Below are positions 7,630 through 57,313 of a DNA stretch of 64,000 nt, in pieces. Location: positions 96,001 through 160,000 of the forward strand of contig CAWIAD010000002.1 of the NCBI GenBank assembly GCA_963833985.1, written 5' to 3'. The notes under the pieces were generated by a model. The model saw nothing but the letters and a program-made list of their open reading frames with translations. It had not been told where the DNA came from and did no database searches. Position 1 is the stretch's first letter. Every line of letters begins with the position of its first letter. Source of the DNA: an uncultured Planctomycetaceae bacterium. GTDB lineage: Bacteria; Planctomycetota; Planctomycetia; Isosphaerales; Isosphaeraceae. A program made the position numbers and the translations under genes.

Positions 7630-8259
7630 TCATTCCGCAGGGGAGGGGACTTCGTCATACTCATCTTCAACAACATCGAACAGTTCGGGCAATGGGATCG
7701 CCAGGCGCGGCAGCAGGGTGCTGCTTGCCTCCTCTGCACCGCGGTAAACTTGCTCGATCCAGGAATCTCCATCCCGCACCAGAACCGTGACGGTCTGCGT
7801 CACCGGATCGACAATCCAGTACTCGCGAATGCCGAAGGCCAGGTACTCCTCTCGCTTGATCACGTAGTCGCGTTCTCGAGCCTCGTTCCCCTGCGATACG
7901 ACTTCCATGACAAGTGCGGGAGGTCTGCGGCGCCTTTTGTCCCTGGGGGTATTTCGGAGTGTCACCGCGACATCCGGGTTACGTCCGGAGACCATGCGGG
8001 GTAGCCAGAGCCTGTATTCGCCAGCTCCTCCGGCTCGGTGGATGATTCCGGGGTGCTTTTGCTGATTGATCGCCAGCGCAGAAACAAGCTTCCAGACGAT
8101 CTCCCCATGCGGGTCGTTCGGGACTTCGGTCACTTCAAGAATTCCTCGGGCCAGCTCGTAGCGGTATCCTTCTTCGGCCTCGGCCTCGAGGAATTCCTCG
8201 AGAGTCATCTTTCGGCCCTGGTCGGCCGGGCTGATGCGGATGGCGTTCACGGTGGCCAT
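7630..8259 (-). CDS. Uma2 family (DUF820) PD-(D/E)XK endonuclease
   Basis: YELARG, RNPDVAV, EVVS, RDY..KREEYLAFGIREYWIVDP. Confidence 0.9.
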   Translation of the reverse strand: MATVNAIRISPADQGRKMTLEEFLEAEAEEGYRYELARGILEVTEVPNDPHGEIVWKLVSALAINQQKHPGIIHRAGGAGEYRLWLPRMVSGRNPDVAVTLRNTPRDKRRRRPPALVMEVVSQGNEARERDYVIKREEYLAFGIREYWIVDPVTQTVTVLVRDGDSWIEQVYRGAEEASSTLLPRLAIPLPELFDVVEDEYDEVPSPAE

Positions 8260-13333: not shown

Positions 13334-13951
13334 TCAGGCTTGATTTTCCTCCGTATCGACCCACAACTGTGCCACGGCCATTGCGAAACCGGGAGGCAGG
13401 CCGCTCTCGATGGGATCGTCGCCGCTGAACCGGCGCTCGGACCAGCATGGCCGGCCTGCTTCCTCGGTGCGGGAAAGCACCACGACATGGCGCTCCTGGG
13501 GATCGACGATCCAGTACTCCCGGAGGCCGAGCGCGAGGTATTCCTCGGCTTTCTCCTCATAATCACGCTCGCGGGCGCGCCGGCCGCTCGAGACAATCTC
13601 CACGGCGAGGTCGGGACGCTGGCGGTTGCGGTACATCCGTGCGAAGTCGCGAAAGATCACTGCGAGGTCGGGATGACGATCGGACTCCAGCTCGACGAGG
13701 ATGAACCGCACGTCGCTGCCGTGGGCGAAGCGTTGGATCAGGCCGGGATGCTCGGCTCGATACTTGCTGAGCGCCTCGTGCAGGTTGTCAAGGATCTGTC
13801 CATGATCATCGCCGGGCACCTCGGTCACTTCGAGCAGTCCTCGCGACAGCTCGTAAAGATACCCGGGTTGCTCGTCGGCCTCGTGGAAGTCCTCGAGGGT
13901 CATGCGTCGGCCGTCGTCGGCCGGGCCGATACGCAGCTTGACGGTCGGCAT
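13334..13951 (-). CDS. Uma2 family endonuclease
   Basis: IGPADDGRRMTLE, YELSRG, RHPDLAV, EIVS, GLREYWIVDP. Confidence 0.9.
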   Translation of the reverse strand: MPTVKLRIGPADDGRRMTLEDFHEADEQPGYLYELSRGLLEVTEVPGDDHGQILDNLHEALSKYRAEHPGLIQRFAHGSDVRFILVELESDRHPDLAVIFRDFARMYRNRQRPDLAVEIVSSGRRARERDYEEKAEEYLALGLREYWIVDPQERHVVVLSRTEEAGRPCWSERRFSGDDPIESGLPPGFAMAVAQLWVDTEENQA

Positions 13952-14079
13952 GGCGGCTCCTGATCTCCCCGGTTCATGGTCCTCGCGAGTACCCGCTTGT
14001 ATCCTAGCCGGGCACGGCCTTAGAATCCAGCGAGGGCAAGCACCGGGCATGTCCGAACATGCTTGCAGGAACGATTTCG

Positions 14080-14421
14080 ATGGCGAAACCCGATGGATCC
14101 ACGAATGCCGGTACCAGCGTGCAGGGAGCGCCTCGGTTCGGCAGCTATATTGGACTTTTTTTTGTGGCCGTGATCCTGGGCATCCTGTTCTTTGCCCTGC
14201 TCCATGACCCGGGAACCAACCATGCATTCGACGGGCTCAGGCCGGGCATGAGCTCGACCGAAGTCGCCGCGGTGCTCGGAGTGGCTCAGGCCGAGAACAA
14301 GGAGGGAACGCTGCTGGTACAGACCTGGCGCATCCCTGACGGCACGCTTTTCGAGGTCCGCTTCCAGGACGGGAAGCTCGTCGCGAAGCAACGCAAGGCG
14401 GCTGGCCGCGCGACTCCTTGA
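14080..14421 (+). CDS. Small single-pass membrane protein with BamE/SmpA-like GMS..EV..VLG motif
   Basis: TM helix YIGLFFVAVILGILFFALL then LRPGMSSTEVAAVLG...VRFQDGKLVAK. Confidence 0.65.
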   Translation: MAKPDGSTNAGTSVQGAPRFGSYIGLFFVAVILGILFFALLHDPGTNHAFDGLRPGMSSTEVAAVLGVAQAENKEGTLLVQTWRIPDGTLFEVRFQDGKLVAKQRKAAGRATP

Positions 14422-19215: not shown

Positions 19216-19373
19216 GAGGGTCGGGTCCTTTCTTGCGCTCTCGATCAGATCATGATCATTCTAGCGGCGTTCGTCAAACGCCTGGGGTCGGGAAAGTTGT
19301 GACAGGGCCAGGGTACGTATCCGACGCACCCAGCCGGGAGTGAGACCAACGCAGGCAGGGGCAAAACCGGACC

Positions 19374-20657: not shown

Positions 20658-20798
20658 GTTTGCCCTCCTTTCGCCCTTCCGGGCTGCCGCCTTTTCGGAT
20701 CATTCCCGTTGCCCGCGGGCGGTCGCGTCAGGCAGGAACCGTACTCAGTTAGCCTGTCATCCGGATCGGATCGGTCTGACCTCAGGTCTCCTTCGAGG

Positions 20799-21164
20799 TT
20801 AGAGCGGCTCACACTCGGAATCGATCACATAACCAATGGCTCGAATCATGTCACGCATGGACGATGCATCGAGCGTGGCGATCGGGCCGCGATCGAGGTC
20901 GAGTCGGGCCTTCTCCAGACTGGCGATACTCTCACATTGAGCCACGGAGTCTTTCGTGAAACCGAAACGACCGGCTCGGAAGGGCACACAATTCCGCATC
21001 CCGCTCCGCGCCGCGAACTTCCTCGATGTACAGCTCACAACAACGACATATTCGCCGCGATTCAGTTTTTCCCTCGAAACGACGACCACGCGATGCTGAT
21101 CCTCCTCGGAAAGAGGCTGATCCTCCTCGGAAAGATGGATCTTATAGATTTCGCCGGGTCGCAT
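20799..21164 (-). CDS. PemK/MazF family type II toxin
   Basis: MRPGEIY, HRVVVVS...N, VVVVSCTS, DSVAQCESIASLEKARL, IATLD...M; ATG overlaps upstream TGA (TGATG). Confidence 0.8.
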   Translation of the reverse strand: MRPGEIYKIHLSEEDQPLSEEDQHRVVVVSREKLNRGEYVVVVSCTSRKFAARSGMRNCVPFRAGRFGFTKDSVAQCESIASLEKARLDLDRGPIATLDASSMRDMIRAIGYVIDSECEPL

Positions 21165-21637
21165 CACAGGTCTTCCTTGATGCGTCGGCTGAAAGCAGCG
21201 AAAGCGGCCTTGTGAAACGCCTTCTGCTCCCTCTCGTCCGCTTCGTACTCTTCTCTTTCCTCGACGCTGGCGAATCGATCGTTCGGATTGCCCAGATGCG
21301 TCTCCTCGGTGATCGACCAGACCGACACGGAACAGATCCCGTTCCGGTCGCGGCCTGAGGGCCCGGTGATCCGCCTGGCGGACTGCCGTGCGCCGACCTT
21401 CTTCTGGCCAAAAGCGTAAAGAAATCTCCCAAGCTGCTGATCGGCGGTCATTTCCGGATCGGCGCAATCGCCATAAAGCTCATAGATCGCGTACAGCTCG
21501 TCATTGCGGTGTTCACTGAGCCAGTTGATAAGGTCGTGGCCATCGTAATCGCCGCGCTCCGAGAACGTCTCGCGCACGGCACGAACGCCCTCGCGAATCG
21601 CCGCAACCAGAGCCGAATCCTCCTCGAAGCGTGCCAT
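21164..21637 (-). CDS. Hypothetical protein, putative antitoxin
   Basis: 157 aa; translationally coupled upstream of the MazF-like gene; acidic helical C-terminus. Confidence 0.65.
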   Translation of the reverse strand: MARFEEDSALVAAIREGVRAVRETFSERGDYDGHDLINWLSEHRNDELYAIYELYGDCADPEMTADQQLGRFLYAFGQKKVGARQSARRITGPSGRDRNGICSVSVWSITEETHLGNPNDRFASVEEREEYEADEREQKAFHKAAFAAFSRRIKEDL

Positions 21638-21643
21638 GAAGCC

Positions 21644-22069
21644 TCATCCCTTGACTTCCACCCCCATGCTGCGGGCCGTGCCGGCGATGACCCGGCAGGC
21701 GTGCTCGATGTCGCGGGCATTCAGGTCGGCGAACTTCGTCTCGGCGATCTTCCGGACCTGCTCGGCGGTGACGGTGCCGACCTTCGTCTTGTTTGGCACC
21801 GCCGAACCGGCAGCAATACCGGCGGCCTGCTTGAGCAGCACCGCGGCCGGCGGGCTCTTGGTGATGAACTCGAACGAGCGATCCGAGTACACCGTGATCT
21901 CGACGGGGATGGTTGTCCCCTTCATGTCCTTGGTGCGCTCGTTGAACTGCATCACGAACTGACCGATATTCACCCCGTGCTGGCCGAGGGCCGGCCCCAC
22001 CGGCGGCGCGGGCGTCGCTTGCCCGCCGGTGCACTGTAGCTTCACCTTCGCCGTCATTACCTTGGCCAT
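21644..22069 (-). CDS. rplK: 50S ribosomal protein L11
   Basis: [25 protein letters not shown]. Confidence 0.98.
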
Positions 22070-22160: not shown

Positions 22161-23021
22161 TCAGATTCGCTCCAGTTGCCAGTACTCGAGGTCCACCGGC
22201 GTGGGACGGTTGAAGATGATGAGCATCACCTTCACCAGGCCGCGCCCCTCGATCACTTCCTCGACGGTCCCCTCGAAGTTCTCGAACGGCCCATCCTTGA
22301 TCTTCACGCGGTCGCCGCGTTCCACGTCGATGCGGAACTTGGGGGTCTCCGCGGTCGTCTTCTCTTCTTCCTGGTGCAGCATCTGGTTGACCTCGGCGTC
22401 GGTCATCTTCGTGGGCGTGCCGTGCGCCCCGACGAAGTCGCCAACGCCCGGCGTCTCACGCACCAGGAACCAGGTCTTCTCGTTCAGCTCCATCTGCACC
22501 ATGATGTAGCCGGGGTACGTCTTGCGCTCCACGATCCGCTTCTTGTTGTTGCGGATCTCGGTGATCTTCTCAGTGGGCACCACGATCTTGTCGAAGTACC
22601 TTTGCAGCCCCTTGATCTTGACGTTGCGCTGCAAGGCGTCGCGGATCGTGTCCTCGCGCGAGCTTTGAACCTTGAGCACGTACCAGACGAGTTCCGGTTT
22701 GGGCTCGTCGTCGTCATCGGCGGGCGCGGCCGCGGCCGCGACCGGCTCAGGTGCTGAGGCCGGGACATCGGCCTGCGGCTCCGGGATCTCTGGTGCGGAC
22801 TCCGGCTCCGCTGCTGACTCGCCGGCGGCCGGCTTGACTCGCGCCCGGCGCTTTCGTGCGGGGGCCCTGGCGTCGGCCGCACCGCCGGCGGGGAGTTCCT
22901 CGCCGGCCGCGGCCTCGAGGTCCGGATCCGCGTCCGATGTGCTGCCTGGCGCCGGGGTCTCGCTCGGCGCTGCCGCCGGCTCGGCGGTCGGGTCCATGGG
23001 GTCGTCGCTCGGGTCGCTCAT
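22161..23021 (-). CDS. nusG: Transcription termination/antitermination factor NusG with long N-terminal extension
   Basis: WYVLKV, YPGYI, RETPGV..FVG, KOW domain GDRVKIKDGPF. Confidence 0.96.
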   Translation of the reverse strand: MSDPSDDPMDPTAEPAAAPSETPAPGSTSDADPDLEAAAGEELPAGGAADARAPARKRRARVKPAAGESAAEPESAPEIPEPQADVPASAPEPVAAAAAPADDDDEPKPELVWYVLKVQSSREDTIRDALQRNVKIKGLQRYFDKIVVPTEKITEIRNNKKRIVERKTYPGYIMVQMELNEKTWFLVRETPGVGDFVGAHGTPTKMTDAEVNQMLHQEEEKTTAETPKFRIDVERGDRVKIKDGPFENFEGTVEEVIEGRGLVKVMLIIFNRPTPVDLEYWQLERI

Positions 23022-23119
23022 GATCGATTCAACAAAAATAAACTGGATCTCGGCCCGGCGCACCGTGCGGGCAGGGTGCCTCCCGAGCCTGGGGTGTACG
23101 AGTCAGACGTCGAGTCCCG

Positions 23120-40548: not shown

Positions 40549-41028
40549 TCGTTGCCACCGTCACCAGGGACCGCTGCGTTTTCAGATGGTCCACGGCAGG
40601 CGCGGGTGCCTGGGCGCTGTCATTTTCCTGTGTTTTTATCTTGTCGTCCCTCCTGCCGCCGAACGCTCAAGACGCTCATGTCGCTCTTGAGTTGCACCCG
40701 GAGACGCGTCAGGCCATCGCAGCATCGGGCGCACTGTCGGTCAGCGAGGAAGGGCGCCGGGACACGGTCGAGCCGTTCGCGAGAGTAGCCGCCTCCGAGA
40801 CCATAGCCCCAGCATCTCAGAACCAGGCTCAATGCACCCGGCCAAAGATCGGCAGCCGTAGCGCTCCCTATGAATCACTGCACGACGGCCGGGCGGATCG
40901 CGTCGCTCATGCCCGAGATGGCTCCACGCGATCCAGACAAAGCAAGCAGTGCGCGGACCGTCCCTCATGGATGAACTGTTCACCCATCGTACCGTGTGAC
41001 GCGGGTCGCGATCCGCTGAAGCTCCGAG

Positions 41029-41246
41029 TCAGGCCGGCGGCTGACTTTGCATGAGTGAGCGCACGCGCCTGATTGACCGACTCGTCCGTCGGGAACGCGG
41101 CTCGAACGTCGGGAGCCAGCAACACCAGGTTCGTCCCGGTGCGGTAACTCTGCAAGTACTTACCGCGGACACCGCTCTTGAGCACCGAGGCGTCGTACTC
41201 GGGACGGAGTTCTTCATCGTCCGAGCCTCAGATCATCCTTCCTCAT
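41029..41246 (-). pseudogene. Frameshifted antitoxin partner of BrnT
   Basis: DEELRPEYDASVLKSGVRGKY..YRTGTNLVLLAPDV..AFP.DESVNQA; two indels; start overlaps the toxin end. Confidence 0.7.
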
Positions 41247-41386
41247 AGAATTTCCTCTCCTTGCGCGTGGCGCAGCGGGCACTCATGATGCGGGTGAATT
41301 CGCCCCGGTCGGTGTGCGACACGACAAGCAAGCGTCCCTCGCTGGAATGACGCGCGGCCTTCTCCAGATCCCATTTCGAACTCCAT
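41233..41386 (-). pseudogene. BrnT family toxin remnant with internal deletion
   Basis: MEFE/WDLEKA N-terminus joined directly to GRLLVVSHTDRGE.TRIMSARCATRKERKFYEEG; central KHG..F segment missing. Confidence 0.75.
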
Positions 41387-41572
41387 AAGATCACCGTAGC
41401 CCGCCCAGACTCGCCAGGCAAGGAGCCGGCCATTCCTCATGACCTGTCGAACCGGGATTCCAGGGGCGAGTGCTGGACCCTTCTGAATATCTGGAACGCG
41501 CTGGGCACGCGCGCCGGCGGCGAGGTCGTGAGCGCGGACGCGTTCTGAGAGCGACCGGGGCGAGCCCGTGTT

Positions 41573-56789: not shown

Positions 56790-57107
56790 ATGGCGCGTCG
56801 GCGCAACTTCACTGTGCTGACGCCTCTGGGACACCAGGTTTTCCTCACGCGCGGCCGGTGACGACAAATCATTCGGTTCAAGCACCCGGCCCTTGCGGGC
56901 CACGAACACGAGGCCCGCGACTGCCTGGCAACACCTTCGCTGATCCGAGAAAGTGCCAAAGAGCCCGATGTTCACCTTTATTACGCTCCCGCGGCAGATC
57001 GGCATCTCTGCGTCGTCACAGCGCCCGCTGACGAGAAAGAACGCTTCGTCGTCACAGTCTATTTCACCAGGAACATCAAGTCGGGGAACGAACTATGGAA
57101 AAGCTGA
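56790..57107 (+). pseudogene. Putative toxin partner of DUF2283 with in-frame TGA at 56859-56861
   Basis: TPLGHQVFLTRGR*RQIIRFKHP...P..IRES..EPDV.LYY...LCVV...FVVTVYFT..IK.G.ELW; overlaps the DUF2283 start. Confidence 0.7.
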
Positions 57108-57313
57108 GGGTCTACTATGATCGTGAAGGGAACACCTTGAGTGTCTGGTTCGACGATCCAAAAAAGGAGTTTGTCTGCGAGGAAACCGACGACGACATCG
57201 TGCTGGTCAAGGACCGCGAGGGGCGAGTGATCGGCTTCGAGCGGCTCAATTATCTCTCAGCCAGGCAGAGAAAGTCTGGAGCCAACGTTCCCGTGGAAGT
57301 CCACATGGTTTGA
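57095..57313 (+). CDS. DUF2283 domain protein (putative antitoxin)
   Basis: VYYDREGNTL.VWF...DDIVLVKD.EGRVIGFE.L. Confidence 0.82.
   Translation: MEKLRVYYDREGNTLSVWFDDPKKEFVCEETDDDIVLVKDREGRVIGFERLNYLSARQRKSGANVPVEVHMV

Follow-up and report, generated by a model that had tools for sequence, protein, structure and literature searches.

A toxin-antitoxin-type cassette between rplK and rplA in a soil planctomycete, probably an accessory passenger of the ribosomal protein operon

Why does a toxin-antitoxin (TA) gene pair lie between rplK and rplA, two genes for ribosomal proteins, and does it work there as a regulator of growth or travel as a passenger? The question arises in a 64,000-nt stretch of DNA from an uncultured Planctomycetaceae bacterium (contig CAWIAD010000002.1, positions 96,001 to 160,000), here called the window. 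TA modules normally carry an autoregulated promoter. The original prediction proposed instead that this module is driven by ribosomal protein operon transcription, either as a growth-rate-coupled switch or as a selfish element in a protected site. We conclude that it is probably an accessory type II TA cassette, expressed by read-through and horizontally acquired, which occupies a permissive non-coding slot. The features on which the argument turns are the following.

22069 to 21644, minus strand: rplK (uL11), 141 aa, single copy (Pfam PF03946 and PF00298)
21637 to 21164, minus strand: ORF157, 157 aa, beginning after a 6-nt gap behind the rplK stop
21637 to 21308, minus strand: ORF157 residues 1-110, unclassified winged-helix-like domain (model and structural matches)
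21307 to 21164, minus strand: ORF157 residues 111-157, acidic helical tail, putative toxin-neutralising part (partner-family homology)
21164 to 20799, minus strand: PemK/MazF-fold toxin gene, 121 aa (Pfam PF02452, Foldseek)
21133 to 21092, minus strand: 21-nt tandem duplication (repeat D6) within the toxin gene (repeat search)
20729 to 20662, minus strand: rplA leader, candidate L1-binding site (alignment and consensus fold)
20657 to 19977, minus strand: rplA (uL1), 226 aa, TTG start (Pfam PF00687)

The minus strand thus reads rplK, ORF157, toxin gene, rplA, each present once in the genome of the window (G000). These coordinates bear out the predicted anatomy, in which a 157-aa reading frame 6 nt past the rplK stop is coupled to a PemK/MazF-like gene, its stop and the toxin start overlapping as TGATG. 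The expected distance of about 140 nt to rplA also holds (141 nt), although this spacer is not empty and contains a conserved rplA leader. Across the 114 of 121 family genomes that yielded both rplK and rplA, the basis of all our gap counts, the two genes are separated by a median of 180 nt (minimum 82), against 986 nt in the window, so that the insert is not a matter of chance. The same gene arrangement recurs in four other genomes (G008, G009, G011 and G006) and on three metagenome contigs (L035, L036 and L037, the last with its toxin cut off by the contig end). The inserted genes are foreign-looking in composition, with GC3 values of 0.72 and 0.63 compared with 0.89 for rplK and rplA. Consensus scans found neither a sigma-70-like promoter nor a terminator in the interval, and we infer read-through expression from these negative scans together with the 6-nt gap. 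To that extent, resting on anatomy, the predicted dependence on operon transcription stands. The sole sigma-70-like site between 19000 and 24000 lies at 19249-19277, between rplJ and rplL (one found, 0.6 expected by chance). Further up the operon, nusG (22161-23063) encodes a long extension at the N terminus, acidic and rich in Pro and Ala (some 105-120 residues), similar to that in G111.

What the insert leaves undisturbed is as informative as what it contains. Just before the rplA Shine-Dalgarno sequence (20669-20664) sits the motif CCGCC...GGCGG(C/G)AG, in which, in the window, CCGCC at 20722-20718 pairs with GGCGG at 20691-20687. The strict pattern precedes rplA in 102 of 114 family genomes and a relaxed one in 113; before rplK both patterns score 0/114, a count that covers this motif shape only. 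The leader resembles the two strands of the L1 site in the same genome's 23S rRNA, with their order reversed; that site was located by a sequence motif. Its consensus fold is a bulged stem in which none of nine predicted pairs displays compensatory change, because the pairs are nearly invariant, and it has no Rfam match at gathering score. These features suggest a candidate L1-binding site. The original prediction had pointed to the L1-autoregulated rplK-rplA unit of E. coli, a comparison that the median separation of the genes and the position of the motif, before rplA and never before rplK, do not support. In Proteobacteria the published L1 site precedes rplK; in Cyanobacteria, Actinobacteria and Chloroflexi it is found in front of rplA, according to a part of Fu et al. 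2013 (PMC3616713), the main text of which mentions Planctomycetes nowhere. The cassette sits upstream of the leader, which remains intact, and the predicted anti-Shine-Dalgarno duplex is far stronger at rplA (-11.4 kcal/mol) than at ORF157 (-5.6) or the toxin (-4.9). Because the leader is untouched and rplA has a strong Shine-Dalgarno sequence of its own, the stretch behind the rplK stop can be regarded as a free slot.

The MazF fold that was predicted for the second gene is confirmed. The toxin scores 43.4 bits against PF02452 (curated cut-off 23.1, E 4.5e-11), and its model (pLDDT 88) matches the MazF structures of B. subtilis, S. aureus and M. tuberculosis (Foldseek E 1.9e-8, TM 0.72-0.76, probability 1.0). 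Against PDB sequences phmmer found no match, while a profile search returned 18. Arg25 and Thr48 are described as essential in B. subtilis-type MazF in a section of PMC10893535. The toxin's Thr46 aligns with the catalytic Thr and is invariant in 19 of 19 sequences (alignment A3); His24, however, takes the place of Arg25, and Arg replaces the Pro that follows. Among the 66 clade rows long enough to use, one of them unread, this position is His in 51 and part of an Arg-Pro pair in 14. Since His stands at the catalytic Arg position, we class the product as a MazF-fold protein rather than a canonical Arg/Thr MazF, and judging from these residues RNase activity cannot be assumed. The 76 genome loci of the clade (L058-L133) span several phyla, among them Planctomycetota, Acidobacteriota and Binatota. 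Only two loci, L066 and L068, are close to rplK-rplA; the remaining 74 have no rplK, rplA, nusG, tuf, rplJ, rplL or rpoB match nearby. A His-Arg pair occurs in five rows, four of them site copies and the fifth apparently the distant L099, and the site copy L035 has His-Pro; for both reasons we rejected His-Arg as a private mark of this site. On the clade tree the window toxin has a branch length of 0.75 compared with a median of 0.17, and this long branch, together with the divergent antitoxin tail described below, suggests that the window copy may be attenuated. The duplication at 21092-21133 adds seven residues to the toxin's beta1-beta2 loop. It is missing from the 18 homologues in A3, with P0020 carrying a different insertion there. 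It is also missing from one otherwise identical environmental contig (depth 2), and we therefore read it as either an allele of the strain or a slip in assembly.

Searches of Pfam (E<=1) and NCBIfam (E<=0.1) returned nothing for ORF157; the protein may work like MazE, yet matches no described MazE/PemI family profile. Its origin becomes clearer from the gene that usually accompanies this toxin. In 57 of the 76 clade loci an unnamed partner family, typically of 72 aa and without a Pfam or NCBIfam model, lies upstream of the toxin; six further loci match the partner tail only and 13 give no match. The last 37 alignment columns of ORF157 match the C-terminal half of this partner (hhalign probability 96, E 2.5e-9). 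ORF157 is thus a chimera, a winged-helix-like domain joined to the partner's C-terminal tail. A partner-tail HMM detects the window protein weakly (E 0.001), and seven relatives and the G011 protein at 2e-4 to 6e-8. Seven proteins with other tails, N-domains fused to VapB-like tails included, received no score. The tail is acidic (pI 4.9), is modelled as a helix over residues 125-156, and has just 41% identity to its counterpart in L035. A portion of PMC11394972 reports that MazE-mt3 and -mt9 bind their toxins through an acidic C-terminal helix-type element. The shared tail makes ORF157 a plausible cognate antitoxin.

Residues 1-110 make up a separate domain, and the two halves of the protein are modular. 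The ORF157 model is confident (pLDDT 96), and the best structural matches of this domain are largely winged-helix/forkhead proteins, with middling Z scores of 5.0-6.2 and rmsd of 2.3-3.7 for most; on the model it looks like a nucleic-acid-binding fold. Foldseek gave no match to the ORF157 model at E<=0.001, and in the ESM Atlas the domain (0.91-0.92) and the 72-aa partner (0.96-0.97) match unnamed clusters only. Among 121 family genomes five contain the domain, as do five among 401 class genomes, two sets that overlap, and it has no copies in the viral contigs or plasmids searched. Away from this site it is found by itself, as a fusion to DUF433 upstream of a DUF5615-like gene, downstream of a Phd-type gene, and, on a different tail, before PIN-like genes between nusG and rplK (L040, L041 and G111). 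Inserts of this last kind are as follows.

L040:248-1217: N-domain and PIN-like genes between nusG and rplK
L041:365-1338: N-domain and PIN-like genes between nusG and rplK
L051:1501-2498: N-domain and PIN-like genes between nusG and rplK

In G011 and G006 the tail shared with ORF157 instead follows an unrelated 75-aa domain, and in every copy at the rplK-rplA site the usual N-terminal domain of the partner has been replaced. No operator or promoter-like site for autorepression by ORF157 was identified in the interval, where the gap to rplK is 6 nt; the Z scores of the domain are 5-6.2 only.

Comparison of relatives shows how the cassette has fared. Intact or broken, it occupies the site in five of 14 genomes of the genus and in none of 100 other family genomes. 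Both the ORF157 and the toxin frames are open in G000 and G011; G008 has one stop in each cassette gene, and G006 has kept the antitoxin with its toxin reduced to seven codons. The metagenome contigs differ likewise, L035 being intact and L036 frameshifted in the toxin. The antitoxin of G009 is also frameshifted, in an error-prone assembly; we did not count this as decay, because rplA, rplJ and rpoB are split there too. A host tree of 20 genomes rejects the five carriers as a clade (AU p 1.5e-5) and places the toxin-less G006 as sister to the insert-free G003. The six site toxins do not group in a free tree, a split that follows from the long branch of the window copy, and their single origin is not rejected (AU p 0.73; 59 rows, seven long rows dropped). 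Either an early single gain followed by multiple losses or exchange by recombination via the flanking genes would fit. A single origin allows residence since the base of the genus, which counts against a passenger. Between cassette and relatives dN is 0.25-0.36 and dS runs from 1.4 to saturation, compared with a dS of 0.55-0.76 for rplK and rplA; these rates point to purifying selection on a cassette that changes faster than its neighbours. Codon bias lowers dS in ribosomal protein genes, and for that reason we did not accept the high dS of the module as proof of repeated transfer.

Since relatives gain, remodel and lose the cassette at this position, it appears to ride on a strong operon as a passenger and not to be a growth switch built into it, and it is probably not a growth regulator evolved by the host. 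The alternative of a selfish element in a protected site, offered in the original prediction, gains support from the patchy, partly decayed occurrence and the intact leader. The abundance of TA genes in the genus (five PemK genes in G000; up to eight partner-family matches per genome) also favours this reading, as does the use of the same gap by HicAB-like genes and tRNA-Ile(UAU) in other genera, detailed below. We propose that a cassette without its own promoter would be expressed by read-through of the tRNA-tuf-secE-nusG-rplK transcript. Ribosomes would re-initiate behind rplK to translate ORF157 and would reach the toxin gene through coupling at TGATG. The acidic tail would bind the toxin dimer, as the C-terminal helices of MazE do, and keep it silent. 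The insert would be tolerated because rplA initiates independently, at its own Shine-Dalgarno sequence under L1 control. The module would persist as an accessory, addiction-type passenger and be lost once its toxin is inactivated. Against this reading count the His at the catalytic Arg position, the combination of long toxin branch and divergent tail, and the absence of convincing terminal or target-site repeats around the cassette and of any mobility gene beside it.

Several of these points would also suit a detoxified or decaying remnant, a former TA module whose toxin has little or no RNase activity here and which is carried as a near-neutral passenger. Both substitutions at the active site favour that explanation, as do the long branch, the divergent tail and the broken copies in relatives, and an Arg-to-Ala change abolishes the activity of MazF-sth in the portion of PMC10893535 that deals with it. 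Nevertheless, His is the norm of the clade and Thr46 is invariant, both frames are open in the window with dN far below dS, and in G006 the antitoxin has outlived the toxin, the sequence of loss that a harmful toxin would predict. We consider a remnant unlikely.

A further reading gives the position itself a use, and here the other contents of the operon gaps have to be weighed. The rplK-rplA gap exceeds 400 nt in 10 of 114 genomes, through this module in five, HicB-like genes in two, small ORFs in two and no clear ORF in one. More than 400 nt separate nusG from rplK in two of 114, and in none of the 109 genomes measured do rplA and rplJ lie more than 250 nt apart. The cargo identified in the rplK-rplA gap, in addition to the module, is as follows.

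L168:2436-2764 (G086): HicB-like gene followed by a broken HicA-like gene, below Pfam cut-off
L155:1655-1807 (G088): lone HicB-like gene behind tRNA-Ile(UAU), below Pfam cut-off
L216:1629-1868 (G068) and L210:2369-2569 (G067): ORFs of 67-80 aa, 6 nt past the rplK stop, no Pfam match
L012:1360-1431, L025:1369-1440, L028:2070-2141 and nine more loci: tRNA-Ile(UAU)

On the useful-position reading the nusG-rplK-rplA junctions repeatedly capture RNase-type TA pairs (MazF-, HicA- and VapC-like) that lack their own promoter and usual N-terminal domain. Such pairs would report the output of the ribosomal protein transcript, starvation or phage shut-off would free a His-type MazF RNase, and the winged-helix-like domain on MazF- and VapC-type antitoxins would act as an adaptor. 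The HicA, HicB and PIN matches behind this argument for a landing site all fall below Pfam cut-offs, which weakens it for the preferred passenger reading as well, and we are doubtful that the position is useful in this sense.

Of 114 family genomes, 12 have the tRNA gene in the gap, and in G011 the toxin is followed by a decayed copy (nhmmer E 4.9e-7). We detected no remnant in G000 or in any of the three remaining carriers, and with G011 alone of five carriers showing one, tRNA-targeted integration was rejected as the insertion mechanism. A decayed copy is present in L005. G000 itself lacks tRNA-Ile(UAU) and has one PF01171 (TilS-family) gene; ARAGORN lists 53 tRNAs there, with one tRNA-Ile(GAT) and only two with a CAT anticodon. 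Three CAT-anticodon tRNAs are usual where TilS is used. Other additions to the region were also seen. In two carriers the gap holds, behind the toxin, a third gene of 185 aa with an N-terminal hydrophobic stretch and without a Pfam match (L035:1092-1646 and the corresponding part of L031), and between nusG and rplK of G067 lies an ORF of 209 aa that resembles a membrane protein (L210:1248-1874). In the window, two Uma2-family genes (7633-8259 and 13334-14227) flank a 1440-aa rpoC-like ORF, the one immediately behind it and the other in the gap that follows rpoB, as more accessory cargo in the core cluster. Further TA-like remnants in the window are a BrnT-like fragment (below cut-off) with a downstream ORF at 40910-41433 and a DUF2283 gene at 57095-57310.

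The growth-rate switch of the original prediction would couple dormancy to ribosome synthesis: as ribosomal protein transcription falls the antitoxin decays, and the freed toxin cuts RNA. Such a switch would be consistent with an interval that has no room for a promoter and in which no terminator was found, with the recurrence of TA-like pairs of three families in this operon, and with the replacement of the usual N-terminal domain in every site copy, as expected if autorepression of an own promoter had been lost. E. coli RNase toxins, moreover, cut ribosomal protein transcripts and so block ribosome biogenesis (PMC8546651, in part). The distribution speaks against it, with the site empty of the module in nine of the 14 genus genomes and in all 100 others of the family, the carriers not forming a clade and several copies broken. 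In addition, the L1-like leader lies downstream of the cassette, so that L1 feedback would not act on it, and the parts of PMC8546651 and PMC9712102 that discuss release note that toxins are often not set free by stress induction and that protein antitoxins may turn over too slowly. We regard the switch as improbable.

An anti-phage module is comparably hard to sustain. Here constitutively high operon expression would hold the toxin in check until it was released by phage transcription shut-off or through a swappable N-domain sensor. Fast turnover, N-domain swapping and high divergence at a single site would suit such a function, and there are precedents, cited here from part of PMC9712102, in ToxIN, activated by transcription shut-off, and CapRel, activated by direct binding to its antitoxin domain. 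Against defence stand the lack of a notable PADLOC match (best E 0.008) and of a defence-island context, and an N-domain that looks like a nucleic-acid-binding fold and also occurs alone. An assembly artefact, by which TA genes from elsewhere were spliced between rplK and rplA, is hardly credible: the assembly of G000 is of metagenome type (completeness 96%, contamination 3.9%), and among the environmental pieces listed its rplK/ORF157 and toxin/rplA junctions go unbridged, but the same order recurs in the four other genomes and three contigs named above, and three soil DNA runs of one study contain near-identical pieces of rplK, ORF157, toxin and rplA, one of them spanning the ORF157/toxin junction.

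The accessory passenger that we favour is of interest beyond this genome. We found no report of a TA module inside rplK-rplA or a ribosomal operon in the literature searched, which consisted of titles and the starts of abstracts with subscription papers mostly outside, nor, in titles and abstract starts, of antitoxin domain swapping of this kind or of planctomycete tRNA-Ile(UAU). Close relatives here provide natural, seemingly promoter-less TA copies in an essential operon that are intact, remodelled, broken or absent, and thereby make addiction and host benefit testable against each other. Within the libraries and literature searched, three further elements are apparently undescribed: a broadly distributed MazF clade in which His stands for the catalytic Arg, an unnamed partner family able to join its tail to different N-terminal domains, and, ahead of rplA in this family, a candidate L1-binding leader. 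Were the switch or the defence explanation true, toxin release would be tied directly to ribosome synthesis; the distribution of the module makes this the less likely outcome.

Finally, the cassette can be placed among known systems. It shares its toxin fold, at 22-29% identity, with MazEF/EndoA of B. subtilis (PDB 4mdx, 4me7, 1ne8) and MazEF-mt1, -mt3 and -mt9 of M. tuberculosis (6kyt, 5hk0, 6a6x). It also shares the catalytic Thr, an upstream, overlapping antitoxin gene and a partner with an acidic C-terminal helix. Unlike those systems, it has His for Arg25 and a naturally short beta1-beta2 loop in the toxin, a partner with a winged-helix-like domain and no MazE-family match, and a location in a ribosomal protein operon with no promoter of its own found. 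Its closest likeness is to the unnamed PemK clade with its 72-aa partner (A3, A6), with which it has in common 50-60% toxin identity, the His motif, the partner tail and overlapping genes. It departs from that clade in that a 110-aa domain, or in G011 and G006 the other, 75-aa domain, stands in place of the first ~40 residues of the partner. The candidate leader resembles the L1-binding mRNA element of the L11 operon, as outlined in part of PMC3616713, in being a predicted, internally bulged stem directly before rplA, and differs from the 23S L1 site in the reversed order of its strands. In the E. coli L11 operon, by contrast, the L1 site precedes rplK and the translation of rplK and rplA is coupled (PMC3616713, same part), whereas in the window the motif precedes rplA, which has a Shine-Dalgarno sequence of its own.
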